59,819 nt of DNA. It comes from a virus. Taxonomy: Duplodnaviria > Caudoviricetes. Under the pieces are notes generated by a model, which saw nothing but the letters and a program-made list of their open reading frames with translations, did not search any database and was not told the DNA's origin. Positions 27,073 through 51,683 of the stretch are shown here, piece by piece. Where the stretch lies: IMG/VR virus record IMGVR_UViG_3300044580_000450, positions 1-59,819 of that record; one strand, 5' to 3'. Position 1 is the stretch's first letter; the number at the start of each line of letters is the position of its first letter. A program made the translations under genes and the position numbers.

Positions 27073-27849
27073 TTATCTTTCAGAAAGCCACTTAAAGTCA
27101 GGAAGGGTTATTTCTCCTTTTTCCTCTTTGTCCTTTAAGAAAAGATAATATGCTTTTGCTTCAACAACACCATTTACCCAGGCAAGATTACAAAATTCTT
27201 CGGGGGTATTACAAGCGGCCATATATCCTATTCCAAGACAATAAAGGGTTCTTTTTACTCCATAATAGCCATCGTGAAATTCCTTTCGGGTCTGCCTCCA
27301 ATCTCTCCCCCATTCAAGATCCTTCCTCATTTCTTCAACAAACGGGGCAAGCATTTTTATAATAACATCTTCCTGTCTTTTGGTATCTTCTCCAAAGTCT
27401 CTTACTCGAGCTTTAATTTTTATAGGATTTGCTATTTGTCCTCTTTCATAACCCTGATGCTGATGAGGGTTAAAATCTGTTGTCATTTTATCAAACCACG
27501 GATAATAATGACGAATCATCCACATAACTTGATTCTCATCATTTACTTCTGCAACAGCATAGTCCCAATATTTCTTTTTCTCTTCTGGAGTATCTCCTTT
27601 CACCATCACCCCCTTGCCATCCATCCAGTCCCAGAGATCTTCTACAGAACACCAGCATGAATTAAAAGAAAACTGATTATTAGGATTTATCCAAACTTTA
27701 ATATTAGGATCTCTTTTATCCACTCCACTATTTGATCCATCGAAAAGATCATTCATTGGTTTACAAACAGGATGCTCGGCAAGATAATCAAATACGGTTT
27801 TACCTATATTCATCTGTCTTTTTGCATCGACTCCTCTTTGAAAATTCAT
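27073..27849 (-). CDS. Hypothetical protein with N-terminal FxRGxDxK tag
   Basis: MNFQRGVDAKRQMNIG. Confidence 0.65.
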   Translation of the reverse strand: MNFQRGVDAKRQMNIGKTVFDYLAEHPVCKPMNDLFDGSNSGVDKRDPNIKVWINPNNQFSFNSCWCSVEDLWDWMDGKGVMVKGDTPEEKKKYWDYAVAEVNDENQVMWMIRHYYPWFDKMTTDFNPHQHQGYERGQIANPIKIKARVRDFGEDTKRQEDVIIKMLAPFVEEMRKDLEWGRDWRQTRKEFHDGYYGVKRTLYCLGIGYMAACNTPEEFCNLAWVNGVVEAKAYYLFLKDKEEKGEITLPDFKWLSER

Positions 27850-28052
27850 AGCTTTAGAAGTTTATTTCTATCGCTAATATACGAAAAAAGATCGAGATAA
27901 AAAAATATTTTTTAAACTTCTTGAGTTCCGATTGGGCAAGAAAGATTACCATCAGCATAATCAGCCGGACCGGGAGACGTTGTTCCTAATTTTTCACAAG
28001 TAATCCAATCTAAAGCCCCCAAATTCCATGATAGAGATTTTCTCTATATATT

Positions 28053-28131
28053 TGTCGGCGAAGAGGGAATCGAACCCACATGCAACCAATTAACCTTTCG
28101 ACCGGGTATCAGCCGGAGGGTATATTCGCCG
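28053..28131 (-). ncRNA. Rearranged tRNA-like RNA with a GAT anticodon hairpin and no D-arm in the normal position
   Basis: Acceptor CGGCGAA/TTCGCCG and T-loop TTCGATT present; CCGG-CTGATAC-CCGG lies close behind the acceptor. Confidence 0.65.
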
Positions 28132-28136
28132 AAATT

Positions 28137-28210
28137 GTGGGCATACCGGGATTTGAACCCAGATTACGAGGTTATCAGCCGCGCGTCCTAACCAATTAGA
28201 CGATACGCCC
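28137..28210 (-). tRNA. tRNA-Ile(GAT)
   Basis: Cloverleaf; loop CTGATAA. Confidence 0.88.
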
Positions 28211-28214
28211 ATTT

Positions 28215-28288
28215 TGTCGGCATACCAGGACTCGAACCTGAATTACGGGGGTATAAGCCGCGCGTTCTCACCATTGAACTATATGCCG
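28215..28288 (-). tRNA. tRNA-Ile(TAT)
   Basis: Cloverleaf; loop CTTATAC; body similar to the adjacent Ile(GAT). Confidence 0.85.
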
Positions 28289-28291
28289 ATA

Positions 28292-28378
28292 TGCGGAGAG
28301 TGCGGGTAACGATCCCACCCGGGTTTTACCCCGACTCTAGTTTTCCAAACTAGTACCTTACCTCTCGGTCAACTCTCC
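28292..28378 (-). tRNA. tRNA-Ser(GGA)
   Basis: Loop TTGGAAA, long variable arm, atypical T-loop. Confidence 0.8.
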
Positions 28379-28996
28379 AATAATTTTTTCTTTCATGTTT
28401 TGATTATCATCCCAAGGAATTCGTATAATTTTCCATCCCTGCTCTAAAAGAAATTTATCTTTTTGAAAATCTTTTTCCTTTCTTTCTTTATAATTATGTT
28501 GCTTACCATCTATTTCCAAAGCTATTTTATTTGATAAAGCAAAATCGATAAAGTATTTTCCTACCTTAAATTCCTGTTCAAATAATATTCCTTCTTTTTC
28601 TAAAATATCTTTAGTTATTTTTTCAGGTCGTGACATCTTGTTTCGGGATTGCCAACCAATTGTTGTATCTCCTTTTTTATATCTTCTTTTAGCACTATCC
28701 GAAAAAAGTTTAGAAAGTTGTTTTTTACCTATTTCAGAGGATGCTCTTAATTGAGCTGAACATTTTTTACTACAGGTTTTTTGCTTTATTTTCTTCTTTT
28801 TAACCAAAAACTCCTTTCCACACTTTTCGCATTTTTTAGAAATCAAAGGATATTTTTCTTTAATAATCTTTTTTAATGTTTCTGAAATCAAAGAACGTTT
28901 ATTTTTTGTACTAAATCCTTTAGCACATTTATCCGAACAAAATCTGCCAGAACCATAAGTTCCATCATGTTCTTTTTCACAATATTCACATTTCAT
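28358..28996 (-). CDS. DUF559/Vsr-like endonuclease with Cys repeats, inserted in the tRNA cluster
   Basis: GSGRFCS, CSKKC, YFIDF, LEIDGKQH, KD.FL..QGWKIIRI. Confidence 0.85.
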   Translation of the reverse strand: MKCEYCEKEHDGTYGSGRFCSDKCAKGFSTKNKRSLISETLKKIIKEKYPLISKKCEKCGKEFLVKKKKIKQKTCSKKCSAQLRASSEIGKKQLSKLFSDSAKRRYKKGDTTIGWQSRNKMSRPEKITKDILEKEGILFEQEFKVGKYFIDFALSNKIALEIDGKQHNYKERKEKDFQKDKFLLEQGWKIIRIPWDDNQNMKEKIIGELTER

Positions 28997-29050
28997 ATCT
29001 ATTATACTAAATAGACTTTGAAAGTTTCGAATAGAGGACTTTGTCCTTAA

Positions 29051-29123
29051 GAGCTTCTACGCAGCCTCGAACTGCGGACTCCGGTATACCACACCGGTAT
29101 TTTACCGACTGAACTATAGAAGC
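29051..29123 (-). tRNA. tRNA-Thr(GGT)
   Basis: CCGGT-GTGGTAT-ACCGG. Confidence 0.85.
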
Positions 29124-29126
29124 AAT

Positions 29127-29202
29127 TGAGCCTACAATCGGGATCGAACCGACTTCTGCGCATTACGAGTGCGCTATCCTCTGCCTTCTAGACGATGCAG
29201 GC
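29127..29202 (-). tRNA. tRNA-Thr(CGT)
   Basis: GCGCA-CTCGTAA-TGCGC. Confidence 0.85.
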
Positions 29203-29210
29203 TTTTGTGC

Positions 29211-29294
29211 TGGGTGGAAGACGGGATTCGAACCCGCGTGCCCTAAGGCCCTGATCCACAGTCAGGTCGGAAACCACTACCGGTTACAACCACC
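29211..29294 (-). tRNA. tRNA-His(GTG) with encoded G-1 and an extended variable arm
   Basis: CCTGA-CTGTGGA-TCAGG; C73 discriminator. Confidence 0.8.
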
Positions 29295-29297
29295 ATT

Positions 29298-29386
29298 TGC
29301 GGAGGGTGAGGGATTCGAACCCCCGGGGCATTTACACGCCCTTCAGTTTTCAAGACTGACCTGATAGACCACTCTAGCAACCCTCC
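29298..29386 (-). tRNA. tRNA-Ser(TGA)
   Basis: TCAGT-CTTGAAA-ACTGA; long variable arm. Confidence 0.9.
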
Positions 29387-29390
29387 AAGG

Positions 29391-29478
29391 TGCGGAGAGC
29401 AGAGTATTCGAAACTCAAGCATTGTTAACGCTCCCTTCGCTTAGCAGGCGAGGACACCACCTCGGTGCGTTACTCTCC
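29391..29478 (-). tRNA. tRNA-Ser(GCT)
   Basis: Loop CTGCTAA; long variable arm. Confidence 0.8.
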
Positions 29479-29484
29479 AATGGT

Positions 29485-29576
29485 TGCGGAGGCGAAGAGA
29501 TTCGAACTCTTATGGCATTAAAACGCCACTCTCGGTTTTCGAGACCGGGCCATTGCTCTGTTGATGGTACACCTCC
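29485..29576 (-). tRNA. tRNA-Ser(CGA)
   Basis: Loop CTCGAAA; long variable arm. Confidence 0.8.
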
Positions 29577-29587
29577 AAAAATATGTC

Positions 29588-29622
29588 AAAGAAAAAGGGA
29601 AGGCTTTTTAAGGACCTTCCCT
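29588..29622 (-). terminator. Attenuator terminator upstream of the Ser/Thr/Ile/His tRNA operon
   Basis: AGGGAAGGT..GCCTTCCCT hairpin followed by TTTTCTTT. Confidence 0.8.
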
Positions 29623-29653
29623 GAGAATAAAATTGAAATTAAAATTAAGAGAT

Positions 29654-29734
29654 TCAATTTTGAGTCACAAGAAGGCCCGCCTGATCCGAGGATGAGGTAC
29701 TAATACTAATCGTATGTATAGAATGCCTTCTCAT
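29654..29734 (-). CDS. Leader peptide MRRHSIHTISISTSSSDQAGLLVTQN
   Basis: Hand-translated; codons 4-16 are only His, Ser, Ile and Thr. Confidence 0.8.
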   Translation of the reverse strand: MRRHSIHTISISTSSSDQAGLLVTQN

Positions 29735-29791
29735 TTTTTGGTTTTTTATATATATCAACTTATATGCAAGAAAAATACTAAGGTTTTGCAA

Positions 29792-30214
29792 TTATTTGTT
29801 ATTTATTAATTCTTCCCTAACTTCTTCCAGAGAAGACATATCATTTTCCGCCATCTCCTTGAAAAAGTTTCTTCCAGCTATCAAAGAATTTAATCTTCTC
29901 TGAAGACCCTTTGTTCTAAAGAAAGAAAATAAAGAAATGCCAACACATGCGAATCCAAACCACTGCGGAGCTCCGTAAAATATTCCAACGAAAGCCGGAA
30001 CAAAAGCCACCCAAGTCATAAATCTCATTAAAAGCATCCATGAAAAGCTAATATGGATTTTTTCAACGTACATCTGGTCATTCAGCCGGATGAATTTCAA
30101 GGGGCTTTCTATAAGAGCTTCATTAAAAAACTTATCCATTTCTTGACGATTTGAGAAACGGAAATCAGTTGCTTTAAACTTAAGTCCTTCGAATTCCATT
30201 GTTATTGTTGCCAT
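29792..30214 (-). CDS. Membrane protein
   Basis: Two TM helices; promoter box upstream. Confidence 0.6.
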   Translation of the reverse strand: MATITMEFEGLKFKATDFRFSNRQEMDKFFNEALIESPLKFIRLNDQMYVEKIHISFSWMLLMRFMTWVAFVPAFVGIFYGAPQWFGFACVGISLFSFFRTKGLQRRLNSLIAGRNFFKEMAENDMSSLEEVREELINNK

Positions 30215-30294
30215 CTCTTTTAATTTTAATTTCATTGTAAATGTACAAATAATTTCCTTAATACGAAAATATTTATCAGATAAAATCGTTAAAA

Positions 30295-30885
30295 TTAATA
30301 ATTTTTTTCAATATAATCCATTAATTTCTTGATATTTTCGTCTGCTTTAGGACCCATTATACCAAGACAGGACTTAAGAAATGCCAGCCTTCCTTTTTTA
30401 TAACTTGATAATGAAAGATGATTGAATTCCAATCTTATTTTCTTTTCAGTCTCAAAGAATTTTTCATACGATCCAACAAATCCAGCATTGTCCGCATCCC
30501 AAAAAATTTTTAAAAGAGGATCAGCAGGTTTTTTCCTATATTTTGTGCATTCAATCATTTCCCCAATTTTCTTAGCCATAAATGGATCTTCTCCTTTAAA
30601 TGTCTGCATAAACATTTGGAGAGATTTATCCTCGTTATCTCTAAATCCAGGGATATAAACAGCATCATGAAAGAATGCAGCTAGAATAAGAGCTTCTCGA
30701 TGAATAGGTAAAACAAAATTCCTTTTCTTTTCAATATCATATAAAATTTGATGAAGATGGTCTATATTATGATACTTCCTCCTCGGTTCGTTCCATGCTT
30801 CTTCAAGTAAACGAATAGTAAAATTGGATAAGTATTTTTCCAAAATCCCTCTATATTGAATAAAAGGGTTCATTCTATTTTCCAT
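30295..30885 (-). CDS. HD-domain phosphohydrolase
   Basis: R.YHN..H, FHDAVY, NE.KS and DAD. Confidence 0.85.
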   Translation of the reverse strand: MENRMNPFIQYRGILEKYLSNFTIRLLEEAWNEPRRKYHNIDHLHQILYDIEKKRNFVLPIHREALILAAFFHDAVYIPGFRDNEDKSLQMFMQTFKGEDPFMAKKIGEMIECTKYRKKPADPLLKIFWDADNAGFVGSYEKFFETEKKIRLEFNHLSLSSYKKGRLAFLKSCLGIMGPKADENIKKLMDYIEKNY

Positions 30886-31103
30886 TGGTGCTTTCTGTTA
30901 TGCTTCCAAGTTTTGTACATTCTTATTTGATGGCCCCAAATCAACCTTGATTTTCTCCATCCCCTGCGTCCTCTTTTACGCTTCTGATAATAACCATATT
31001 CCTCTGGATATGGATCTTGATCAATGCATCTTAATATATGATACTCTCTACTATTTGTAGTAAAATTGAGTATCTGTGATTGTTTTGGCTTATGTTTTCT
31101 CAT
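30870..31103 (-). CDS. Small basic protein ending WK..RK.QW
   Basis: ORF; paralogue of the upstream ORF. Confidence 0.65.
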   Translation of the reverse strand: MRKHKPKQSQILNFTTNSREYHILRCIDQDPYPEEYGYYQKRKRGRRGWRKSRLIWGHQIRMYKTWKHNRKHQWKIE

Positions 31104-31279
31104 GGCATCCACTGTTTACGTTTTTTACTCTGGTATTTCCAGCAACGTGGTGCATGCCAACCTAATCTATTGCAACCTTTATGGGGGCTGCAAATTGGAC
31201 AATGTAAAAGTCTAAGTTTATCAAGACGAGTATATTTGAATACCCGACGATGAGTAGTGTACTTGTAATTGTTTCTCAT
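31100..31279 (-). CDS. Small basic Cys/His protein, 59 aa (not in the ORF track)
   Basis: Hand-translated: CPICSPHKGCNR..WKYQSKKRKQW; ATGA overlap with the next gene. Confidence 0.7.
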   Translation of the reverse strand: MRNNYKYTTHRRVFKYTRLDKLRLLHCPICSPHKGCNRLGWHAPRCWKYQSKKRKQWMP

Positions 31280-31347
31280 AATGGTCTTTATTTAAGGAAC
31301 TATTTTCCTCAAAGACCATCTAATATTAATTTTTTATTTTTCATATT

Positions 31348-31848
31348 TTAGAATACAACTTTTATTCCTAATACAATAGCCATGGCAATAAAAGCTAAAA
31401 TTTCTATCCACCAAGTTCTATTTTTACATATCGTTTTTCCTTTTATCTTTATAAATCTGGTTAAAACTAATGGTAAAGCAATTGCTGCAAAACCAACTGC
31501 TATTGGCCATAGATCAAAATCCAAAATAGTAGATAATTGACTAAATAAAATCCCAGATAATGCACCAATTATATGAACGGTTTCTGTCATCTTTTCTCGA
31601 TATGCAGCTGCGGCACCGACAAAAGCTATTCCGGCGCCGGCAAAAAACATCAAAGGGGTTGATCCAACTATCATTGCTGGAATTGCATATCCCCAGCACC
31701 ATAGTGTAAATAGAAATTTTTTATTATCCGGTAAAGAATAATAACTATGGGATATGGAAGGCAATACTCCATATTTAGCCCAAATAGCTCCAACATAAGT
31801 AAAAAATACTAGGAGCATTAAAATATAAAATGTCAAAACGTATGTCAT
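31348..31848 (-). CDS. Multi-TM membrane protein
   Basis: Hydrophobic; PSIS.SYY. Confidence 0.7.
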   Translation of the reverse strand: MTYVLTFYILMLLVFFTYVGAIWAKYGVLPSISHSYYSLPDNKKFLFTLWCWGYAIPAMIVGSTPLMFFAGAGIAFVGAAAAYREKMTETVHIIGALSGILFSQLSTILDFDLWPIAVGFAAIALPLVLTRFIKIKGKTICKNRTWWIEILAFIAMAIVLGIKVVF

Positions 31849-31865
31849 AAATGTTTCAGTTATTT

Positions 31866-32375
31866 TTATTCTTCATCTTCAGGTTCATATTCATCTTCAA
31901 ATTCTTCATCATAAGGATCTTCTTCCTCCGATGGAGATGTGTCTACCATTATATCTCCAATAAAGTTCCCATTTCCATCTGCTTCAACTCCACCAGTAAA
32001 TCCATTAATTCGAGGATAAAAATCATTATTAACATCAAATTCGGGATTAAGCTTTTGAACATCAGCAACTGTAATAATAGCTACCATTCCTGCATCCACC
32101 CCGGTACTTCCTTTATGAACACTGTTTCCAGAATGGTTAATTACATCATATTCCCCATCGCCAAATGCTGTGGCAGTATAAAGAATTTTAATGGTTGAAT
32201 CAATATAGATTGTTCCGGCATTAGCTGTTTCAGAACCCTGGTTTCCATTAGGATACCAAAATTTATTAATAATTTCTTGCCATATATCATCTGGGATAAA
32301 ATAGCATGGATCCGTGACAATAATGTCTCCTGAAAAACCTTGATAAGTTTCAGTTGTTACTTCAATCTTTCTCAT
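31866..32375 (-). CDS. Hypothetical protein with acidic tail
   Basis: DPCY, TAFGDGEY and GVDAG motifs. Confidence 0.65.
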   Translation of the reverse strand: MRKIEVTTETYQGFSGDIIVTDPCYFIPDDIWQEIINKFWYPNGNQGSETANAGTIYIDSTIKILYTATAFGDGEYDVINHSGNSVHKGSTGVDAGMVAIITVADVQKLNPEFDVNNDFYPRINGFTGGVEADGNGNFIGDIMVDTSPSEEEDPYDEEFEDEYEPEDEE

Positions 32376-32391
32376 AATAAATCGTTTATTT

Positions 32392-32604
32392 TTATTCTTT
32401 GCCAAAGAAATCATCTTGGCATTTTTGACAGAGGCCAGAGATTCTGGACTCCTTTCTGGAAAGTTCATCGCGAAAATCTTCATCGTTTACAGGCATGCTG
32501 CAGAAAGGGCAAAGACGAAATTCTGCCCGTGAAACTTCTTTTTCAAACCCTAATTGTCTTAGGAGATCTTTTTTCCGGGGATTGTCATAAATTGGTTCTG
32601 ACAT
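32392..32604 (-). CDS. Small zinc-finger phage protein
   Basis: CPFC, FRDELSRKE..ISGLCQKCQD.FF. Confidence 0.7.
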   Translation of the reverse strand: MSEPIYDNPRKKDLLRQLGFEKEVSRAEFRLCPFCSMPVNDEDFRDELSRKESRISGLCQKCQDDFFGKE

Positions 32605-32637
32605 GCTAGCGATGTTTATTTATATATTCGAAAAAAG

Positions 32638-32713
32638 TGCGCCCCCAGAAGGATTCGAACCCTCAACCATCTGATCCGAAGTCAGATGCTCTGTCCAATT
32701 GAGCTATGGAGGC
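32638..32713 (-). tRNA. tRNA-Arg(TCG)
   Basis: TCTGA-CTTCGGA-TCAGA. Confidence 0.92.
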
Positions 32714-32734
32714 ATACCCCTGCCTTACTTAAGG

Positions 32735-32937
32735 GCTTCGGAACCCGGGGATCAGGCTACTGTTAATTCGCATTTACATGTGGTGAAATGTCGCTTGCAA
32801 ACCCCTCGATTAATACGTAATCGAACGGAAAGTTTCGATATGGTCCAAACCTACAACAAACCTCTGCGATTACAAAGTGCAGTGCCGGTTATTCATCCTG
32901 ATAACTCAGATCCCTGATAACGGAGGGAAACCCGAAG
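32735..32937 (-). ncRNA. Unidentified ~200-nt structured RNA between tRNAs
   Basis: End-to-end pairing CTTCGG/CCGAAG and GGGATC/GATCCC; GC-richer than flanks; no credible ORF. Confidence 0.45.
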
Positions 32938-33012
32938 TGAGCGGGAGACGGGGCTCGAACCCGCAACCCTCAGCGTGGAAGGCTGATGCTCTACCAATTG
33001 AGCTACTCCCGC
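32938..33012 (-). tRNA. tRNA-Gly(TCC)
   Basis: TCAGC-CTTCCAC-GCTGA. Confidence 0.92.
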
Positions 33013-33362
33013 TTTTTAATTCTTATATACTTTAACCATGAATAAGTTTTTCTAGTTTTAAGATATTCTAAATTATCATCATTGTCATAAGCCTCTCTTT
33101 CGAAGGATAAAGATCGATACGCTTCAGATCCATTTACAAATATACGAATAATCCACTCAATTAAATACCACAAATAGAAAAAAATTATCAACATTTCTAA
33201 CTGCTGTTTCCAATGAATTTTTTCATGGTTTACAGTTCTTAAGTTAGAAATATATTTATCCTTAATATAAATTCCAAACGGGGCTAAAGTAATTCCAGCT
33301 ATTCCTCCTCCAGTAATAAAATTAAGAAATCCTTTTAATTTACGAACTTTTGGTTTACACAT
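33003..33362 (-). CDS. Hypothetical HExxH protein
   Basis: GITLAPFG, NHEKIH..QQ and FEREAY. Confidence 0.7.
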   Translation of the reverse strand: MCKPKVRKLKGFLNFITGGGIAGITLAPFGIYIKDKYISNLRTVNHEKIHWKQQLEMLIIFFYLWYLIEWIIRIFVNGSEAYRSLSFEREAYDNDDNLEYLKTRKTYSWLKYIRIKKRE

Positions 33363-33525
33363 AACGTTTTTATCTATTTATACAAAATAGATTAAAACAT
33401 TAAGTATTTTATCCGGATTATTAATTTTTTATACCAGGGAAGATCTTCCCATTCTTTTAGAAGCTTTTCGACCTCTTCAGCTTCAATAAGAATATATTTT
33501 TCTTCTTGTTCCATAATGAAAAATT

Positions 33526-33600
33526 TGAGCGGAAAACGGGGTTCGAACCCGCGACCTAAAGCTTGGGAAGCTTTCACTCTACCAACTGAGCTACTTCCGC
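33526..33600 (-). tRNA. tRNA-Gly(CCC)
   Basis: AAAGC-TTCCCAA-GCTTT. Confidence 0.92.
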
Positions 33601-33605
33601 TTATA

Positions 33606-33680
33606 GTGACTCCGTAGGGATTCGAACCCTAAACCTCCTGATCCGTAGTCAGGTGCTCTATCCAATTGAGCTACGGAGCC
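33606..33680 (-). tRNA. tRNA-Arg(ACG)
   Basis: CCTGA-CTACGGA-TCAGG. Confidence 0.93.
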
Positions 33681-33868
33681 TATTCTATTTCTTTTTCTAT
33701 TTCCTTTGCAATCGTTTGTTTTTCACTTCTTTTAAGGGATCTAAACGATCTTTTTATATCTTGCTTAAAACTTTTGCGATGCCGAGAATCCTCAAATCCT
33801 TGTTCCATAACCTCTTTTTTTAATTTTTTGAGGTCCTTTCTTTTCTGATCGTAGTTCTTAGCTTTCAT
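33680..33868 (-). CDS. Small basic protein
   Basis: ORF. Confidence 0.5.
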   Translation of the reverse strand: MKAKNYDQKRKDLKKLKKEVMEQGFEDSRHRKSFKQDIKRSFRSLKRSEKQTIAKEIEKEIE

Positions 33869-33877
33869 TGATTGACA

Positions 33878-34510
33878 TTATTCTATATTATTATTTTCGC
33901 CGTAAAGAGCTCTTACTTTTTGTATCCATTCATTAGTTTTAAGTTTTGTCATAAATACTTTATTATCTATAACTCCCTTAAAAACTAAACCTTCCTCTAA
34001 ACCAAAAGCATTTCTTTTAACAAGATCTATAATGTCCTCAGTTAATATCCCTTTATATATTACTCTGGGAATCCCTAAGTGACCAAACAAATCGATGAAA
34101 TCCCCAGGTTTTAAGAAATCTTTTTTATAGAGAAACATATCAAAAATTACTAAATCATGAGGTTCTTTCCAATCATGTTGTCCTGCAAAAGAATGTTCTC
34201 CAAAAAATTCTCCATAAACAGTTATGGTATCAATACCTCTGAAAATCTTTTCTTCATTGAAAATTTTATCAAGCTTTTCAGCATATTTGTTTTCAAAGAT
34301 CCCAATTGCTTCTTCAAAAGGATTATTAGCATTTTTAATCATCTGAGTTCTTGTCCCAAATTTGCCAAATCCATTAGTAAATCTAGATTTTTTTGAAAGC
34401 TTTTTATTCCACTCAGCACAAAAATTAGATCCATCAAATTTTCTAAATCCATAGACATGCTGTCCGATGTAATCCTCGACATTTTTTTCTATAGAATGAT
34501 AATGCTTCAT
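33878..34510 (-). CDS. RNA ligase-like nucleotidyltransferase (Rnl2-type)
   Basis: KFDGSN, FGTR, YGEFFG, FD, EGLVFK and KLKT. Confidence 0.8.
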   Translation of the reverse strand: MKHYHSIEKNVEDYIGQHVYGFRKFDGSNFCAEWNKKLSKKSRFTNGFGKFGTRTQMIKNANNPFEEAIGIFENKYAEKLDKIFNEEKIFRGIDTITVYGEFFGEHSFAGQHDWKEPHDLVIFDMFLYKKDFLKPGDFIDLFGHLGIPRVIYKGILTEDIIDLVKRNAFGLEEGLVFKGVIDNKVFMTKLKTNEWIQKVRALYGENNNIE

Positions 34511-34857
34511 TTATAATTTATAACTGCTAATGGTTTTCCTTTATCTTTTGCTAAATTTATGGAATGCTGAGTTCCTTTTGATTGACCATCCCAGAATGCA
34601 ATAACTGCGTCAGCTGATTCAATTATCTGAATATTTCTTTTATATCCGGCAGATTTACCAAACTGCTCCCAATCTGGGAGAAAAACAAGAAGCTCAATCC
34701 TATTTTCTCTCGCCCATCTTTCGGCTAAAGAATCCGCTCCGTAAGCTCCCCCAGATATAATAACAGATATTGGTCTCCTGCTATGAATAGTATCCAGTTT
34801 TAGTTTCAATAAATCATAATCATCGAAACCCCTTGAACCAACTACTGCTAATTTCAT
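34507..34857 (-). CDS. DUF2493/YspA-like SLOG protein
   Basis: VVGSR, ISGGA.GADSLA, AG..RN and FWDG.SKGT. Confidence 0.88.
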   Translation of the reverse strand: MKLAVVGSRGFDDYDLLKLKLDTIHSRRPISVIISGGAYGADSLAERWARENRIELLVFLPDWEQFGKSAGYKRNIQIIESADAVIAFWDGQSKGTQHSINLAKDKGKPLAVINYK

Positions 34858-35581
34858 TTGTTTTCTCTATTACGTCCAATATGATAACCATCACAATAAA
34901 TGCACTTATAAACACTGAAATGAACCTTTCGTTTTTTCTCCATTGCTTCAGCAGATTTTAGAGCAGTTTCTTTAGTGTTATACATCACCTTTGGATCCCC
35001 GCTATCCTGCCTGAAATGCGAATTCTTATGAAATAAACCCCATGCATTACCAGTAATGAAGAAATTTCTAAAAGCCCTTTTGAAAGGACCCTGATCCATT
35101 ATTCCTAATATGAGGTTTTTAAGTTTCATTTTATTTGTATAAAGGTTCCGTCTTCCATTCCCTTTCTAATCCATCTCATCAAAGTAATTGCTTTGAATTT
35201 TGGCCAAAGATAAGTTACATTCCACTCTTCATCCATTGAATTTATTTCCAGCTGATATGTCGAATCCTCCACGTCTATTGTATAATAGACTTTTCCTGCA
35301 CATACATACGACAATATAGCTTCTGTATTTGAAACTATTTTTTTAAGTGAATGTTTTATTTTCATCTTTCCAATCTCCAAATTAATATTCTTAACCAATC
35401 TACCTTTCTTAGAGTAATTAAATTATCAAGTTTTATATACCTTTGATATTTTTTAATTTGTTTCTCTGTAAAAGGCCTTTTCCTTTGTACATAAAATTCC
35501 TTAAATAGCTTCCGGTGAAAATAATTATAATGAATAAATCTCCACCAAGCTGTTTTTCTGTATAGAAATTTTATTTTCATT
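34854..35581 (-). CDS. Three small hypothetical ORFs (34854-35129, 35126-35365, 35362-35580)
   Basis: ATGA-overlapped ORFs. Confidence 0.55.
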
Positions 35582-35592
35582 GTATTTTGTTT

Positions 35593-35666
35593 TGTAGCCG
35601 GAACGGGAATCGAACCCATATCTAAGGTTTAGGAAACCCCAATTCTATCCATTGAACTATCTGGCC
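35593..35666 (-). tRNA. tRNA-Arg(CCT)
   Basis: Loop TTCCTAA. Confidence 0.88.
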
Positions 35667-35690
35667 AATTAAAGTGGCCAATCTGGCCAC

Positions 35691-35912
35691 TTACCAAGAT
35701 GTTATTTCATATTCATGATGCTGACCACATTCGGGGCAGGTATAATCGAATCCAATATGTCCATGAGACCCGCAAAGATCGCAAGGAGAATCGGAATGAG
35801 AAAAATTATGCTTGCCGATTTCAATCATAACCTCTTTACCTGTAACAGGGCAGATAACTTTTGCGTAAATGCCTTCTACTTTGTGTTCTACTTTTGCAAC
35901 TTTTTTTGCCAT
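35691..35912 (-). CDS. Small zinc-ribbon protein
   Basis: CPVT, CDLC and CPEC. Confidence 0.6.
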   Translation of the reverse strand: MAKKVAKVEHKVEGIYAKVICPVTGKEVMIEIGKHNFSHSDSPCDLCGSHGHIGFDYTCPECGQHHEYEITSW

Positions 35913-35923
35913 GATATTTTGTT

Positions 35924-36448
35924 TTATGCTACTTTACGGCTTTTTAATTGAAACCAATTCGGATCTGATGGGCGTTCTTTTTTCTTTTTTTCCTTTTTTC
36001 CAGAAAATTCTACCCAAGTCATTCCTTTCATAAAAAGATCGTAAGGGATTGATTTTTTCTTGCAATTACAATCATAACAACTTACTAAATAATTGGAAGT
36101 GTCCAATATATCAATTCCTTCGGATCTGGGAATTTTATGATCAACAGTAACGCAAGGATGTAAATTCTGAGTTTTCTTATTTCTTTCAGGCATTTTGTGA
36201 ATATGTTTTCCACAATAATGACAAACCCAAAATTTATCCCCATTAACCTCTATCCTGTTTTTTCTTAACCAAAGGCGTCGAACTATAAAATAATATCTCC
36301 AATCTGTTTGATATTCTTCAGGATCATCTAAATGTTTATAATAATCTTTTAAAAGAATAGCTGAAGCATAAGAAGGAGTAGAGGGATCTGAGAAAATTTT
36401 ATGAATTTCCTTGGTATTTCTGGATAACTGGAATTTTATTGTTTCCAT
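35924..36448 (-). CDS. HNH endonuclease
   Basis: CHYCG, TVDHKIP, N...SC..CN..K. Confidence 0.85.
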   Translation of the reverse strand: METIKFQLSRNTKEIHKIFSDPSTPSYASAILLKDYYKHLDDPEEYQTDWRYYFIVRRLWLRKNRIEVNGDKFWVCHYCGKHIHKMPERNKKTQNLHPCVTVDHKIPRSEGIDILDTSNYLVSCYDCNCKKKSIPYDLFMKGMTWVEFSGKKEKKKKERPSDPNWFQLKSRKVA

Positions 36449-36450
36449 GA

Positions 36451-36915
36451 TCAGATTTTTTGAGCCTGTAACAATCTATTCCTTAAATCCTGCAATTGTT
36501 TTTCCGTATATTTTTCTGGAATAATAAATTCCTCCGCTTTATGAGATAAGATGGTAACCCCATCTTTTTTAAGAGACCAGGTTAAATACCAATTATGATA
36601 AATGGATTTCTTTTTATCTTTTTTCTTCAAAATAGGAACTAGAAATGTTTCCCCCTTTTCGTCTTTTTGAATTTCCACCCCCGTTATAAAGCATTGGGCT
36701 TCTTGTTTAACAGCAAAACAAGATATTCGGTCATCCCTATATTCTTCAATGCAAAGAGTAACTTCATCTCCAATAGAAAGACCTAATTCTTTTTCAAGAA
36801 TTTGGGATTTTAAGGATTGATAATGATATTCCAGATTTTCTTTATCCCTTTTGAATTTTTCTTCTAAAGATTTGATTTCTTCAGAAATAGATTTAATTTT
36901 ATTCAGAATTTCCAT
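36451..36915 (-). CDS. Hypothetical protein (start moved to MEILNK)
   Basis: Promoter box at 36938-36945 lies inside the track's longer start. Confidence 0.6.
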   Translation of the reverse strand: MEILNKIKSISEEIKSLEEKFKRDKENLEYHYQSLKSQILEKELGLSIGDEVTLCIEEYRDDRISCFAVKQEAQCFITGVEIQKDEKGETFLVPILKKKDKKKSIYHNWYLTWSLKKDGVTILSHKAEEFIIPEKYTEKQLQDLRNRLLQAQKI

Positions 36916-37031
36916 TTCTCTCTTTTTAATTACAGAGTAAATGTACAAATAATTTCCCAAATAAAAAAATTTCCGGAGTTAAAACTTAACCGTTTGAATG
37001 ATTTTCCTTCATTATAAACTTGATTATAATT

Positions 37032-37106
37032 TGTAGCCCCACCGGGAATCGAACCCAGATCTAAGGTTTAGAAGACCTTTGTTACTATCCATTGAACTAT
37101 GAGGCC
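37032..37106 (-). tRNA. tRNA-Arg(TCT)
   Basis: AAGGT-CTTCTAA-ACCTT. Confidence 0.9.
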
Positions 37107-37113
37107 ATGGATT

Positions 37114-37191
37114 TGTGGGAGATGGGGGAGTCGAACCCTCGACCTCTTGCTTGTAAGGCAAGCGCTACTGAACCAACTGAGCTAATCTCCC
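37114..37191 (-). tRNA. tRNA-Val(TAC)
   Basis: CTTGC-CTTACAA-GCAAG. Confidence 0.92.
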
Positions 37192-37322
37192 AATCACGAG
37201 GCCAGGTTTTATTTTCACCTGGAATCTTCTTCTTCAGCTGGGGCATCCGAAGTCGACCGTCATAAACCGGAAAAATTAATTGCCCCAGCAACCAATTCTA
37301 CCTTTTATGATCCACTCTCAAT

Positions 37323-37397
37323 TGAGCGGAAGACGGGGCTCGAACCCGCGGCCTCGACCTTGGCAAGGTCGCGCTCTACCAACTGAGCTACTTCCGC
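37323..37397 (-). tRNA. tRNA-Gly(GCC)
   Basis: CGACC-TTGCCAA-GGTCG. Confidence 0.94.
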
Positions 37398-37400
37398 ATT

Positions 37401-37475
37401 TGTGACCCCGGTGAGACTCGAACTCACGACTCCAACATTAAAAGTGTTGTACTCTACCAACTGAGTTACGAGGTC
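37401..37475 (-). tRNA. tRNA-Lys(TTT)
   Basis: CAACA-CTTTTAA-TGTTG. Confidence 0.92.
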
Positions 37476-37476
37476 T

Positions 37477-37607
37477 TGGTGGCGAGAGCAGGAGTTGAAC
37501 CTACGATCTTCAAGTTATGAGCTTGACGTTTTATCCGATGTATCTCTTCATGTTACTACACCTAAATGAGAAAATTTAAAGAGCATTTTTTTCTAAACTT
37601 TCTCGCC
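37477..37607 (-). tRNA. tRNA-Met(CAT) with a ~55-nt D-loop insertion carrying the repeated RNA module; CCA encoded
   Basis: Acceptor GGCGAGA/TCTCGCC-ACCA; TCAAG-CTCATAA-CTTGA; T-arm intact. Confidence 0.75.
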
Positions 37608-37610
37608 ATT

Positions 37611-37684
37611 TGTAGCGGGAGAGGGATTCGAACCCCCGACCTAAAGGTTATGAGCCTTTCGAGCTGCCTCTGCTCCACCCCGCA
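37611..37684 (-). tRNA. tRNA-Met(CAT), initiator-like 1:72 mismatch
   Basis: TGCGGGGTGGAGCAG start; loop CTCATAA. Confidence 0.85.
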
Positions 37685-37695
37685 ATATTATTATA

Positions 37696-37780
37696 TGTAC
37701 CGTCGGCAGGATTCGAACCTGCGAGACATAAATGCCAAGGGATATGAGCCCTCTCCGATTGTCCACTCTGGCACGACGGT
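37696..37780 (-). tRNA. tRNA with CAT anticodon on a class II (Leu-like) body
   Basis: GAGGG-CTCATAT-CCCTT; long variable arm; A73. Confidence 0.75.
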
Positions 37781-37784
37781 ATTA

Positions 37785-37906
37785 GTAGCGGAAATGGGAG
37801 TCGAACCCAATATCAATAGGTTATGAGCCTATTATGATTCGGTAAACCCGGACAGAAGCATCTATATCTTCCACCCATTGTTACCGCTCCGTTTCACTCT
37901 TCCGCG
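37785..37906 (-). tRNA. tRNA-Met(CAT), initiator-like, with a ~45-nt hairpin in the D-loop
   Basis: ATAGG-CTCATAA-CCTAT; insert CGGTAA..TTACCG. Confidence 0.7.
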
Positions 37907-37910
37907 ATTT

Positions 37911-37986
37911 GTTGCGATAGATGGACTCGAACCATCGACCTCTCCCTTTCGGCGAGAGCGCTCTTTTGCCTCTGAGCTATATCGCA
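37911..37986 (-). tRNA. tRNA-like RNA with an aberrant anticodon loop (GCCGAAAGG), Phe-like or decoy
   Basis: Normal acceptor, D and T arms; no U33. Confidence 0.65.
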
Positions 37987-38045
37987 AACACCATTTTTAT
38001 GTTCGAACTTTATTATGGTGTTAGATCACACCTTCCAGTGTAATT

Positions 38046-38122
38046 TGTGGAAGCGAAGGAAATCGAATCCTCCTCACGTGGATTGCAAGTCGACGTCGCC
38101 AAGCCTTGGTACATGCGCCCCC
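38046..38122 (-). tRNA. tRNA-Ala(TGC), divergent
   Basis: Loop CTTGCAA; G3-U70. Confidence 0.75.
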
Positions 38123-38177
38123 ATTTGAAGTTCGGCTTTTTACAGAGACCGGGATTTCGCCACAAACTGATAAATTA

Positions 38178-38314
38178 AATTGAGAAAATTAACTTGAGTG
38201 TTTTTTCTGTGCAACCGTTACACTTACCCCCTAAGGAAATTTGGCAGGGGGTCCAGGAATTGAACCTGGTCTAGTCGAATGGAAGTCGAAGTAACTCGCT
38301 GTTTCACTACAATT
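38178..38314 (-). ncRNA. Module RNA a: clamp enclosing a circularly permuted Trp-like tRNA domain
   Basis: T-arm and ACCCCCTGCCA come before GGGGGT and the D-arm. Confidence 0.75.
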
Positions 38315-38391
38315 TGTGCCCTCTGTAGAATTCGAATCTACGACCTCTTCCATGTCACGGAAGCGCTCTCGGCCATCTGAGCTAAAAGGGC
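38315..38391 (-). tRNA. tRNA-Val(GAC)
   Basis: CTTCC-GTGACAT-GGAAG. Confidence 0.88.
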
Positions 38392-38481
38392 AAATGGGTA
38401 AGTGGACAAACCTTAGGAATCTGCAGAGGTAGCAGGGTCATATATGTCCTTTAGACTCGAAAAGGAAACTTACCCAGGAAG

Positions 38482-38556
38482 TGCGGGGAGTGAGGGGATC
38501 GAACCCACGACCTGCGGATTAACAGTCCGTCGCTCTACCTACTGAGCTAACTCCCC
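38482..38556 (-). tRNA. tRNA-Asn(GTT)
   Basis: Loop CTGTTAA. Confidence 0.9.
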
Positions 38557-38685
38557 ATTAAAATACTAAATTTCCTATCTGCCAGAATAAACGTGTACTC
38601 ATTTTATTCTGGTCTTACACCACACCTCATAATCACGTTTAGTACAGTAAGCCCGATTATAAGAGGCTCGGTTAATTTAGTATTT

Positions 38686-38773
38686 TGCGTTCCGGGTAGG
38701 ATTCGAACCCACGGTGGCATTTCTGCGTCTGGTTAACGGCCAGGACCTTTCGACCATCTAAGGCAACCGGAAC
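38686..38773 (-). tRNA. tRNA-Asn(GTT) with long variable arm and C33
   Basis: Loop CCGTTAA; variable hairpin GCA-GAAA-TGC. Confidence 0.72.
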
Positions 38774-38775
38774 AT

Positions 38776-38879
38776 AATCTGAGAAAGGATGAAAAGAGTT
38801 TAATCAAAAGCGACTTTTGGAGCTCTCGACAGGAATCGAACCTGCATTAACCGAAGTAGCTCTTTTCTTACTACAGATT
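38776..38879 (-). ncRNA. Module RNA b: clamp enclosing a T-arm and acceptor remnant
   Basis: GTAGTAAG..GAGCTACTTCG, GCAGGTTCGATTCCTGT, CTCTTTTC..TTTCTC. Confidence 0.7.
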
Positions 38880-38953
38880 GCGGTGTGTACGGGAATCGAA
38901 CCCGTGAGCTCCTGAGTGACAGTCAGGAATGATAACCACTTCACTAACACACC
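38879..38953 (-). tRNA. tRNA-Asp(GTC)
   Basis: CCTGA-CTGTCAC-TCAGG. Confidence 0.9.
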
Positions 38954-39048
38954 AAATTTAATCTATCCCCGTTACTGGCATAACGGCTTCCCAGTGCCAG
39001 CTGAGAGAAACGGTCCTGGCATATCCGCCGGTGTCCGCTCTTGGATTA

Positions 39049-39123
39049 GTTCCCCCCACGGGACTCGAACCCGTAACCCCCTGATTAAGAGTCAGGTACT
39101 CTGCACAATTGAGCTACGGAGGA
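39049..39123 (-). tRNA. tRNA-Lys(CTT)
   Basis: CCTGA-CTCTTAA-TCAGG. Confidence 0.9.
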
Positions 39124-39168
39124 ATAAAAGATGATTTTTTGGTTAACGGAGGAAATCAACAAAACCAC

Positions 39169-39245
39169 TGGTGGACCGTAAGGGAGTCGAACCCTTGGCC
39201 TCCTGCTTGCAAGGCAGGCGCTCTAGCCATCTGAGCTAACAGCCC
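39169..39245 (-). tRNA. tRNA-Ala(TGC), CCA encoded
   Basis: CCTGC-CTTGCAA-GCAGG; G3-U70. Confidence 0.94.
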
Positions 39246-39310
39246 ATATACTTGACTCCATGCCATTTCATGGGTATTAAAACCGCCAAATTTGGGGGTA
39301 TGTCAAGCAT

Positions 39311-39385
39311 TGCAGGGGCACCAGGACTCGAACCCGGAGTCAGCGGTTTTGGAGACCGTTATGTTACCAATTACACCATACCCCT
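39311..39385 (-). tRNA. tRNA-Trp(CCA)
   Basis: Loop CTCCAAA. Confidence 0.9.
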
Positions 39386-39388
39386 ATT

Positions 39389-50447: not shown

Positions 50448-51683
50448 TTACTTTAAATTTAAAAGGTATTTACAAACTTCAATCATTTTTGGATCTCCAG
50501 TATGCTTTCCGTCAGCATCTGAAAGTTTAATAGTAGGAATCCATTCGTCTTCTGGAGTTGGTTTTGCTGCACTCATTTTAATAACCATATTGAGGGGGGT
50601 TATCCCGACGTCATTGGATAAATTTGTTCCAATTCCAAAGGAGCATTTAATTTTTCCGATGCAGTAATTTTGAATATCCTTAGCAGTATCCGAATCCAAG
50701 GAATCAGAAAATACGATGGTTTTGGATAAAGGATCGATCCCTAATTTTTTATAATGTGCAATGAATTTATCCGCAAATTCAAATGGATCCCCGCTATCCT
50801 GGCGAACACCATCATACAACTTAGCGTATTTCATATTGAAGGCCTTAAGAAATGCTTCTGTTGAGAAAGTATCTGCAAGCGCAGTTCCGAGACTTCCATT
50901 ATAAACATCTGCCCAATGTTTAAGACCGAGTTCATTTGCCATCTGAAATCCATATTTTGCAGCATGGAACATAAACCATTCATGAGCTTCAGTTCCTATA
51001 GGAGTTAAATTATAAAGATGTGCCAAATGAACGTTTGAAGTACCCACGAATAAGCCTTTTGCCATTCGGTTGCTTAGGTCCTCTACCATTTCTTTTTGTA
51101 CATCATAAGAAAATCTCCTTCTAGTTCCAAAATCCGCTACTTTGATATTTGCATAATTAAAAATAGCAGCTTTTTTCTGATTATTTTCGTGACGTTCCCC
51201 CTCCGATTTAATTTTGAATATTTCTTCTATCACATTAATATCATTTGGAGCTTGTTTATATTTTTCTGCTCTATCGGAATACATTTTGAAATAGAGCTCA
51301 GAAATAAGAGCCAAAATTGGAACTTCCCAAAGTATTGTTCGATACCAATAACCTTCGATATTAATTTGTAGTTCTTCTCCTTGCTGGATAATCCCCACCT
51401 CTGAAGGATCATATTTATATCCCTCAAGAAAATCAAAGTAGGAAGGATCAATATACTTGCACTTCTCAGCAAAGAATTTCTTTTCCTCTGAAGTTACTTG
51501 AAGACTAGACATCTCTTGAATTTGCTCTCTTAATTCCTTTGCAAATCCTTCGGGAAAATCCACTTTGGATCGAAGAATAAAAGTATAGCGAACTTTAGCA
51601 GTCGGGAAAAGTTTCAAGACAGCATTCATCATTGAAAACTTATATAAATCATTATCTAATAGGCTTTTAATAATTGCTTCCAT
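50448..51683 (-). CDS. pncB: Nicotinate phosphoribosyltransferase
   Basis: LLDNDLYKFSM, DFGTRRRFS, GTSNV, GTEAHEW, RQDSGDP, FSDSL and FGIGT. Confidence 0.96.
   Translation of the reverse strand: MEAIIKSLLDNDLYKFSMMNAVLKLFPTAKVRYTFILRSKVDFPEGFAKELREQIQEMSSLQVTSEEKKFFAEKCKYIDPSYFDFLEGYKYDPSEVGIIQQGEELQINIEGYWYRTILWEVPILALISELYFKMYSDRAEKYKQAPNDINVIEEIFKIKSEGERHENNQKKAAIFNYANIKVADFGTRRRFSYDVQKEMVEDLSNRMAKGLFVGTSNVHLAHLYNLTPIGTEAHEWFMFHAAKYGFQMANELGLKHWADVYNGSLGTALADTFSTEAFLKAFNMKYAKLYDGVRQDSGDPFEFADKFIAHYKKLGIDPLSKTIVFSDSLDSDTAKDIQNYCIGKIKCSFGIGTNLSNDVGITPLNMVIKMSAAKPTPEDEWIPTIKLSDADGKHTGDPKMIEVCKYLLNLK

Follow-up and report, generated by a model that had tools for sequence, protein, structure and literature searches.

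Why phages carry transfer RNA (tRNA) genes, and how such genes are controlled, is a long-standing question. It is raised by the phage contig IMGVR_UViG_3300044580_000450, a full assembly of 59,819 nucleotides (nt) that is called the window below. ARAGORN finds 33 tRNA genes in it, every one on the minus strand, and a short open reading frame (ORF) stands ahead of each of two tRNA clusters. For the first of these ORFs, a sequence-only reading had proposed a leader peptide with the layout of trp/his/thr-type attenuation. The present analysis supports this layout through leaders of other phages that track the local tRNA set, footprint-constrained folds, recurrent pairings and a second leader in the window itself. 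Each of the two elements is probably a ribosome-mediated transcription attenuator of the trp/his/thr type that stands ahead of a tRNA operon.

Codon runs and RNA structures of two leaders

tRNA cluster 1 (28137..29576, minus strand; ARAGORN and Rfam) comprises nine tRNA genes in the order Ser CGA, Ser GCT, Ser TGA, His GTG, Thr CGT, Thr GGT, then an endonuclease-like ORF (28358-28996, minus strand) with a C-terminal DUF559 / MTES_1575 restriction-endonuclease-like (REase) domain, then Ser GGA, Ile TAT and Ile GAT. Leader ORF 1 (29654..29734, minus strand), ahead of this cluster, has 26 codons and a TGA stop; it starts with the ATG at 29734, stops at 29656-29654 and encodes the peptide MRRHSIHTISISTSSSDQAGLLVTQN. 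Its codons 4-16 (29687..29725, minus strand), CAT TCT ATA CAT ACG ATT AGT ATT AGT ACC TCA TCC TCG, form the putative regulatory codon run and specify solely His, Ser, Ile and Thr. The sequence-only reading had named this frame, the same thirteen codons and the nine anticodons (four for Ser, one for His, two each for Thr and Ile), and all were found exactly as claimed, the anticodons by ARAGORN. It had further held that each tRNA of the cluster has a cognate codon in the leader and that no other amino acid occurs in the run; under standard wobble, 13/13 consecutive codons are indeed cognate to cluster 1, and 9/9 anticodons have their codon.

The codons cognate to cluster 1 number 14 and make up 22% of the trinucleotides of the window. 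In all six frames of the 59.8 kb, the longest run of such codons is that of leader 1 (13), and the next longest holds 7. A chance origin of the run is excluded. The leader has codons for tRNAs on either side of the endonuclease-like ORF. A leader is scored by its best stretch of cluster-cognate codons within 300 nt upstream of the cluster; for leader 1 this score rises from 9.6, when the first six tRNAs are considered, to 19.5 when all nine are.

The second leader, which the sequence-only reading had overlooked, is ORF 2 (40078..40179, minus strand; 33 codons and TAA, peptide MKRRGNMDNFVNWFGFNRAADKDGGSCPLERVE); it lies ahead of tRNA cluster 2 (37033..39999, minus strand; ARAGORN and Rfam). The 19 tRNAs of this cluster are of the types Phe, Leu, Gly, Asp, Trp, Ala, Lys, Asn, Val, Ser, Met (three genes) and Arg, and Arg and Gly tRNAs carry on past it on the same strand, down to 32639. 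Among the first 25 codons of leader 2, 23 are cognate to cluster 2, or 24 when the downstream Arg ACG tRNA is counted for a CGT codon. When the leaders were exchanged as a control, leader 1 matched cluster 2 at 9/26 codons and leader 2 matched cluster 1 at 3/33. No comparable upstream frame was found at other tRNAs of the window.

The intergenic stretch 5' of leader 1 (29735..29791, minus strand) is A-rich, lacks a Shine-Dalgarno (SD) sequence and presumably holds the promoter. The missing SD is normal here because an SD-like motif precedes just 7 of the 67 long ORFs of the window, against a background of 11%; the regions 5' of these ORFs are A-rich as well. This pattern would fit a host of the Bacteroidota type, and the major head protein of the window shares 48% identity with that of the Prevotella Lak megaphages. 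The Bacteroidota-type promoter motif is TAnnTTTG, and candidate matches to it are present. A scan with the sigma-70 consensus gave 38 promoter matches where 39 were expected, which is the chance level, and established no promoter.

Downstream of leader 1 lies a predicted intrinsic terminator (29588..29621, minus strand), a GGGAAGGT / GCCTTCCC hairpin (29621-29597) of -11.6 kcal/mol in RNAfold followed by the T-run TTTTTCTTT (29596-29588), which ends 12 nt before the first tRNA. Two segments of the leader are related to its arms. Segment 1 (29725..29734, minus strand; ATGAGAAGGC) includes the start codon and resembles the 5' arm of the terminator. Segment 2 (29667..29678, minus strand; GGGCCTTCTTGT) is a copy of the 3' arm. 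The same holds for segment 2 of leader 2, and in both leaders segment 2 can therefore pair with the 5' arm. The sequence-only reading had claimed this pairing for leader 1, in a hairpin that includes the stop codon, and RNAfold recovers it. In the minimum-energy structure of the full leader, GGGCCTTCTT (29678-29669) is paired with the terminator 5' arm, and the apical hairpin of this antiterminator (29629..29661, minus strand; AAAATTGAA ... TTCAATTTT) holds the stop codon; the fold has z = -3.3 against shuffles. The alternative pairing with the leader start, also claimed, has the lowest energy in the nascent RNA as long as the terminator has not been transcribed: segments 1 and 2 form a 1:2 helix of 10 base pairs (bp). 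This duplex has -13.1 kcal/mol and p=0.007 against shuffles (computed on the identical leader of locus L011).

Leader 2 has the same arrangement. Its predicted terminator (40016..40048, minus strand) consists of the GCGGGAAC ... ATTCCCGC hairpin (40048-40023; -13.0 kcal/mol in RNAfold) and TTTTTTT (40022-40016), and ends 17 nt before tRNA-Phe. The minimum-energy fold of the full leader is again the antiterminator (z = -4.2 against shuffles), in which segment 2 (40093..40107, minus strand; GGAAGTTGCCCGCTT, containing GGAAGTTGCCCGC) has the terminator 5' arm as partner, with p=0.010 for this pairing against shuffles. Segment 1 (40164..40179, minus strand; ATGAAAAGGCGTGGAA) covers the start-codon region, in which ATGAAAAGGCGTGG resembles the terminator 5' arm; its partner in the nascent RNA is segment 2, and the fold of the full-length leader pairs it with the terminator 3' arm. 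Both leader peptides start with M-(K)-R-R, probably because the start-codon region resembles the terminator 5' arm.

The effect of a ribosome was modelled by masking 30 nt around the A site; these folds are equilibrium models and do not describe kinetics. For leader 1, the probability of the terminator is 0.00-0.03 with the A site at codons 2-11, intermediate at codons 12-14, and 0.94-1.00 from codon 15 to the stop (codon 27). Thus, the switch from antiterminator to terminator falls at codons 12-15.

Leaders in related phages

Further leaders were sought in a survey anchored on the RNA ligase encoded among the tRNAs of the window, for which 80 IMG/VR and 80 metagenome loci were fetched. Together with the window, the survey comprised 171 sources (170 loci from related large phages) and 1132 tRNA calls. 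Clusters of at least 3 tRNAs numbered 131; redundancy was removed by shared 10-mers, by which 44 were dropped (for instance, L014 = L103 and L019 = L122) and 87 were left. Each was scored as above, and 6674 scores of a cluster's own region with a foreign codon set served as control. Above the 99% control threshold there are 12/87 non-redundant clusters where 0.9 would be expected, and above the 99.9% threshold 8/87 where 0.09 would be expected. On the reverse complement, 0/87 clusters pass. Own and foreign codon sets differ with p = 2e-7 (Mann-Whitney). Five of the eight strongest non-redundant matches are homologous Ser/Thr/Ile/His leaders; the number of independent origins is therefore about six, not twelve. 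The matching leaders represent at least six different amino-acid sets.

Leaders for other sets of tRNAs illustrate this range. In L067, the leader MFLFVQNPNPNQQPRNKSPLGFGRTL, with the run QNPNPNQQP, precedes tRNAs Asn GTT, Pro TGG, CGG and GGG, and Gln TTG and CTG, and AGGAG stands 9 nt before its ATG. A second leader of the same locus, ...EEGREGR..., precedes Glu, Gly, Arg and Met tRNAs. The leader MFSSFCFNSKNELVEFA of L058 (FSSFCF run) is followed by tRNAs Phe, Ser GCT and Cys; that of L118, MNWAADNKGGRDR..., by Lys, Gly, Met, Asp, Asn, Trp, Ala and Arg; and that of L030, ...NLYNMYLNNLEND..., by Leu, Asp, Asn, Met, Glu and Tyr. The published genome LR745206 has ...HKNFSKSHKWF... before tRNAs for His, Phe, Trp, Lys, Arg and Ser.

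The passing leaders share their architecture as well. The run ends 89-129 nt before the first tRNA, and the interval contains the stop codon and then a hairpin with a T-run. The 2:3 pairing, that of segment 2 with the terminator 5' arm, was compared with 300 shuffles in 15 leaders hand-picked from entries of the top list that have a terminator; L018 entered this comparison as a miss, its outer 2-bp helix being taken as the terminator. The best partner of the 5' arm has p<=0.05 in 9/15 leaders and p<=0.07 in 13/15. It always lies just after the run, 0-7 codons before the stop, and this holds across five unrelated terminator sequences; in L058 the 2:3 match is a perfect 9 bp, TTGGTGGAG with CTCCACCAA. 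The 1:2 duplex has p<=0.05 in 6/15 leaders. These elements combine a short ORF with start and stop, in which codons for the amino acids of the local tRNAs are enriched, with a hairpin and T-run ahead of the tRNAs and an antiterminator exclusive with the terminator; in leader 1, masking by a ribosome at the stop would be partial. Observed features are the anatomy of these elements and its significance by statistics, the alternative pairings, and the return of the same plan with other sets of amino acids.

Homologues of the two window leaders provide information on their conservation. Leader 1 is identical in L001 and L002, where the adjacent protein is 94% identical, and a single base, upstream of the ATG, differs in the whole 240-nt leader region. 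This base (window position 29758; region 6437-6676 of L001/L002) changes TTG to ATG eight codons 5' of, and in frame with, the leader ATG, so the homologue in L001 and L002 may start earlier. Leader 2 recurs in L003-L008 at 98.9-99.3% DNA identity, with an adjacent protein that is 90% identical. In the alignment of the Ser/Thr/Ile/His family (A4), 9 of the 11 variant residues of the run are still Ser, Thr, Ile or His by hand count. The segment-2 motif GGCCTTCTT is kept in the homologues, even in L125 and L018, which read it in another frame (G-L-L instead of P-S). Pairs could be counted on A4 for the 1:2 helix, segments 3 and 4 having been set out of register by MAFFT: 86% of cells are paired, compared with 46-63% when the helix is slid, with 2 compensatory changes, and 34 of 500 shuffles score as high. 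This suggests a modest covariation support for the helix.

A pattern scan of IMG/VR for further Ser/Thr/Ile/His leaders returned five contigs already in the set and one chance match (L181, without tRNAs). A DNA search of isolate phages returned no relative of leader 1, just tRNA-sized matches, and LR756511 has no tRNA in the region examined. Two candidates were seen in Xanthomonas phage XacN1. The first, MNKPYYKRYYAKA (score 12.9), is followed by tRNAs for Lys, Lys and Tyr; the second (score 9.1) is an ORF of 46 codons ahead of tRNAs for Phe, Asp and Ile. No hairpin with a T-run was seen in either, and both count as leads only. Just 5' of the Lys/Tyr candidate, at 30282-30390 of XacN1 (L175), a tRNA-like gene with a long insertion can be seen by eye, which is unannotated and not called by ARAGORN.

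Proposed mechanism and rival explanations

From this layout we infer the translation of the leader, the stalling, the direction of the switch and its physiological trigger. Transcription would start upstream of the short leader ORF, and a ribosome on the leader would come upon a run of codons that specify exactly those amino acids which the tRNAs of the operon carry. If any such charged tRNA became scarce, through host tRNA decay, cleavage or high demand, the ribosome would stall in the run. Segment 2 would then be free to pair with the terminator 5' arm, no terminator would form, and RNA polymerase would enter the tRNA genes. With smooth decoding, the ribosome would cover segment 2 up to the stop, and the terminator hairpin would end transcription before the tRNAs. 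If there were no translation, the 1:2 helix would form, and the terminator would form too. The outcome would be a demand-driven negative feedback on the phage tRNA supply, separately for each operon. More tRNA cannot cure amino-acid starvation; therefore, tRNA availability would be the sensible input of such a system.

We lean towards a wider proposal, in which large phages possess a new class of leader-peptide attenuator that senses decoding capacity and fires the matching tRNA operon when this capacity is low. Leaders would co-evolve with tRNA content, and with an RNA ligase beside them they would form a sensor and response to tRNA decay or to anticodon-nuclease defence. In the window, genes of an RNA ligase (33878-34510; its homologues carry PF09414), a SLOG/YspA-family protein and an HNH endonuclease lie amid the tRNA genes (33878-34857 and 35924-36448, minus strand), and this group may be a tRNA repair or counter-defence module. 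A link to anticodon nucleases or tRNA damage is speculation, backed by the ligase gene in the tRNA region. It would fit the position of the ligase among the tRNAs and the statement in PMC7162821 that, in some huge phages, genes are present for ligating tRNAs that host defences have cleaved.

Several results weigh against attenuation, or limit its extent. Only 12-20 of the 87 non-redundant clusters show the signal. In the 40-kb regions around the ligase of Lak-A1 and Lak-B1 no score exceeds 6.6, and in Flavobacterium phage vB_FspM_immuto no leader-like ORF precedes the Ser-Glu-Gln tRNAs. The ribosome-free leader 1 folds at equilibrium into the antiterminator, with a terminator probability of 0.02, and a default-off state therefore rests on a kinetic argument, the order of folding. 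In leader 1, 4 codons separate the end of segment 2 from the stop, and a ribosome at termination would hence cover this segment just partly. A simple terminator scanner called neither the leader 1 nor the leader 2 hairpin, because a loop or bulge falls outside its limits; the terminator call therefore rests on RNAfold.

The folds of leader 2 belong here as well. The footprint-constrained folding proposed in the sequence-only reading shows a switch for leader 1, as described, but for leader 2 only if the start region is also unavailable. With the 30-nt footprint alone, the terminator of leader 2 is favoured at most codons (probability 0.67-0.98, codons 6-34). When the start region is masked too, as by trailing ribosomes, the antiterminator prevails with the A site at codons 2-9 and at 15-20; from codon 21 onwards the terminator takes over (0.98). 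Moreover, the 1:2 duplex of leader 2 is no better than shuffles (p=0.41).

In the choice among synonymous codons, 71 of 129 informative codons are cognate to the anticodons present, where 67.0 would be expected from the codon usage of the phages (z=0.79). By synonymous resampling, the coverage of all anticodons in leader 1 (9/9) has a nominal P=0.027 and two other leaders are also nominally unusual, but over 15 leaders the combined value is p=0.09. Thus, the idea that a leader lists its tRNAs codon by codon holds for leader 1 and is not supported as a general rule, and since the isoacceptor tests are negative overall, the general claim was dropped. The check for leader/anticodon matching in other phages, also proposed in that reading, was successful at the level of amino acids, where leaders track the tRNA set, and not beyond it.

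Metatranscriptome runs of two studies cover parts of the region; in each of runs X1 and X2, of the same study, one contig spans 29122-30300, with 74 extra letters at 29481/29484. Being assembled contigs of RNA libraries that may include DNA, they are silent on transcription and RNA ends, and stretches without coverage carry no meaning.

Some of these results would suit a translated leader that controls the tRNA operon by another logic: a translation gate or timer, in which any translating ribosome opens the 1:2 helix, a sensor of amino-acid starvation, or an element of precursor processing or stability. The match is demonstrable at the amino-acid level only, segment 1 overlaps with the start codon, which is not so in the trp leader, the ribosome-free leader 1 is already antiterminated at equilibrium, and leader 2 needs a masked start region to switch. 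A general gate, however, would have no need of codon runs that follow the local tRNAs in at least six different ways, extra tRNA would not relieve amino-acid starvation, and a hairpin with a T-run stands at the right place in most leaders, which makes such a logic unlikely. Considerably less probable is that the ORFs encode small functional peptides, for example Ser/Thr-rich ones, whose composition matches the tRNAs for another reason and whose hairpins are ordinary terminators or insulators. Starts, stops and conservation would be expected of such peptides and are present; yet the tail of the peptide is not conserved where the frame differs while the RNA motif is kept, and substitutions in the run stay within the tRNA set without preserving the sequence. 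Moreover, other phages have peptides of unrelated composition in this position, and these fit the tRNAs of their own locus in every case.

It is very improbable that the leader RNA binds tRNAs directly and ribosome-free in the manner of a T-box, with the codon run as a row of specifiers. In its favour, a codon is by its nature complementary to the matching anticodon. Against it, the runs are always in frame with an ATG and with a stop a few codons past segment 2, one leader has AGGAG before its ATG, and no acceptor-end binding element was seen. Rfam at E<=1 finds in 27800-40500 no T-box, no riboswitch and no other cis-regulatory family (His, Thr, Trp, Leu leaders etc.), and all matches are tRNA-like. 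Equally hard to credit is a coincidence, in which a chance ORF lies beside the terminator of the upstream gene and the tRNAs have their own promoter. The terminator does lie downstream of a protein gene (29792-30235), and a TTGACA hexamer overlaps the end of the leader 1 T-run. Such a coincidence would leave unexplained the run of 13 beside a next longest of 7 in six frames, the second leader in the same window, the excess of clusters above the 99% threshold with none on the opposite strand, and the recurrent 2:3 complementarity.

Known systems and neighbouring genes

Attenuators of amino-acid biosynthesis are known from Enterobacteria as trpL, hisL, thrL, ilvL, leuL and pheL. The mechanism of trp attenuation is summarised in a passage of PMC4007540. 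The phage element works like the trp/his/thr leaders and is not a homologous member of the Rfam families. It shares with them the short ORF with a regulatory codon run, the segments with mutually exclusive 2:3 and 3:4 pairings, joined in part of the phage leaders by a 1:2 pairing, and the terminator immediately ahead of the genes under control; thrL (Thr and Ile) and ilvL likewise combine codons for several amino acids. In contrast to the enterobacterial attenuators, it belongs to a phage, it regulates tRNAs and not enzymes, its runs hold up to 12 different amino acids and change with the local tRNA set, and its segment 1 overlaps the start codon instead of the regulatory codons. There is no homology in sequence or structure, as no Rfam leader family matched.

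Leader-peptide attenuation also controls aminoacyl-tRNA synthetase genes, as in pheM-pheST of E. coli. Predicted leaders before cysS and other synthetase genes of Deinococcus deserti are given in PMC4007540. There, a leader rich in codons for one amino acid controls a gene of the translation apparatus, with feedback on decoding capacity, and to such leaders the phage element is closest in spirit. It differs in being viral, in serving several amino acids together, and in its output, which is the tRNA itself and not the protein that charges it. The T-box binds uncharged tRNA directly and ribosome-free, through one specifier codon and a conserved T-box sequence. It resembles the phage element in sensing the state of specific tRNAs with a terminator/antiterminator switch; the phage element is instead an ORF without a match to the T-box family.

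The window also resembles the huge phages of PMC7162821 and the Lak megaphages in the kind of genome, the many tRNAs and the RNA ligase among them; the words 'leader', 'attenuat' and 'terminator' are absent from the main text of PMC7162821. No description of the regulation of phage tRNA arrays was found in the literature. Nor was one of attenuation of phage tRNA genes, with subscription journals and supplementary files outside the scope, which agrees with the sequence-only reading, to which no such case was known. If attenuation is the right reading, control of tRNA genes by a leader peptide would, as far as found, be seen here for the first time, and so would an attenuator with codons that follow a changing set of genes. 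A sensor built of the same codons implies on-demand synthesis of the tRNAs, in response to slower decoding of these codons. The comparative rule that leader composition predicts operon content may be used to annotate tRNA operons in uncultivated phages, and the leader design offers a natural basis for biosensors of tRNA availability. The hypothesis is directly testable with reporter constructs.

Additional observations concern the tRNA clusters and their surroundings. Directly past tRNA-Ile GAT of cluster 1, a tRNA-like sequence (28053-28136, minus strand) is called neither by ARAGORN nor by Rfam at E<=1. An acceptor-like stem, a loop CTGATAC with the anticodon GAT, a T-arm and a long extra arm can be recognised in it, but no clear D-arm, and an 85%-identical stretch of this region occurs in the uncultured huge phage LR756500.1. 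Another tRNA-like match of Rfam, also not called by ARAGORN, lies between tRNA-Leu and tRNA-Gly (39703-39765, minus strand; 32.1 bits, E=0.0016). Four tRNAs on the minus strand are unusually long and have low or atypical Rfam scores: His (85 nt; 29212-29296), Met (84 nt; 37697-37780), Asn (87 nt; 38687-38773) and Asp (88 nt; 39390-39477). Insertions or long extra arms are possible.

Three ORFs (40396-40884, 41213-41638 and 27073-27849, minus strand) have a common N-terminal motif, F-E/Q-R-G-x-D/S-P/A-K-x-S/Q-M-x-I/V-G, recognised by eye, and two of the three have no Pfam family. They appear to be paralogues, members of one phage protein family that flanks the tRNA region. The minus-strand genes at 41663-42835, 45433-46458 and 50448-51683 are a radical SAM / lysine-2,3-aminomutase-like gene, a nicotinamide-nucleotide adenylyltransferase gene and a nicotinamide phosphoribosyltransferase-like gene, respectively, a combination that suggests a module for the salvage of nicotinamide adenine dinucleotide (NAD).

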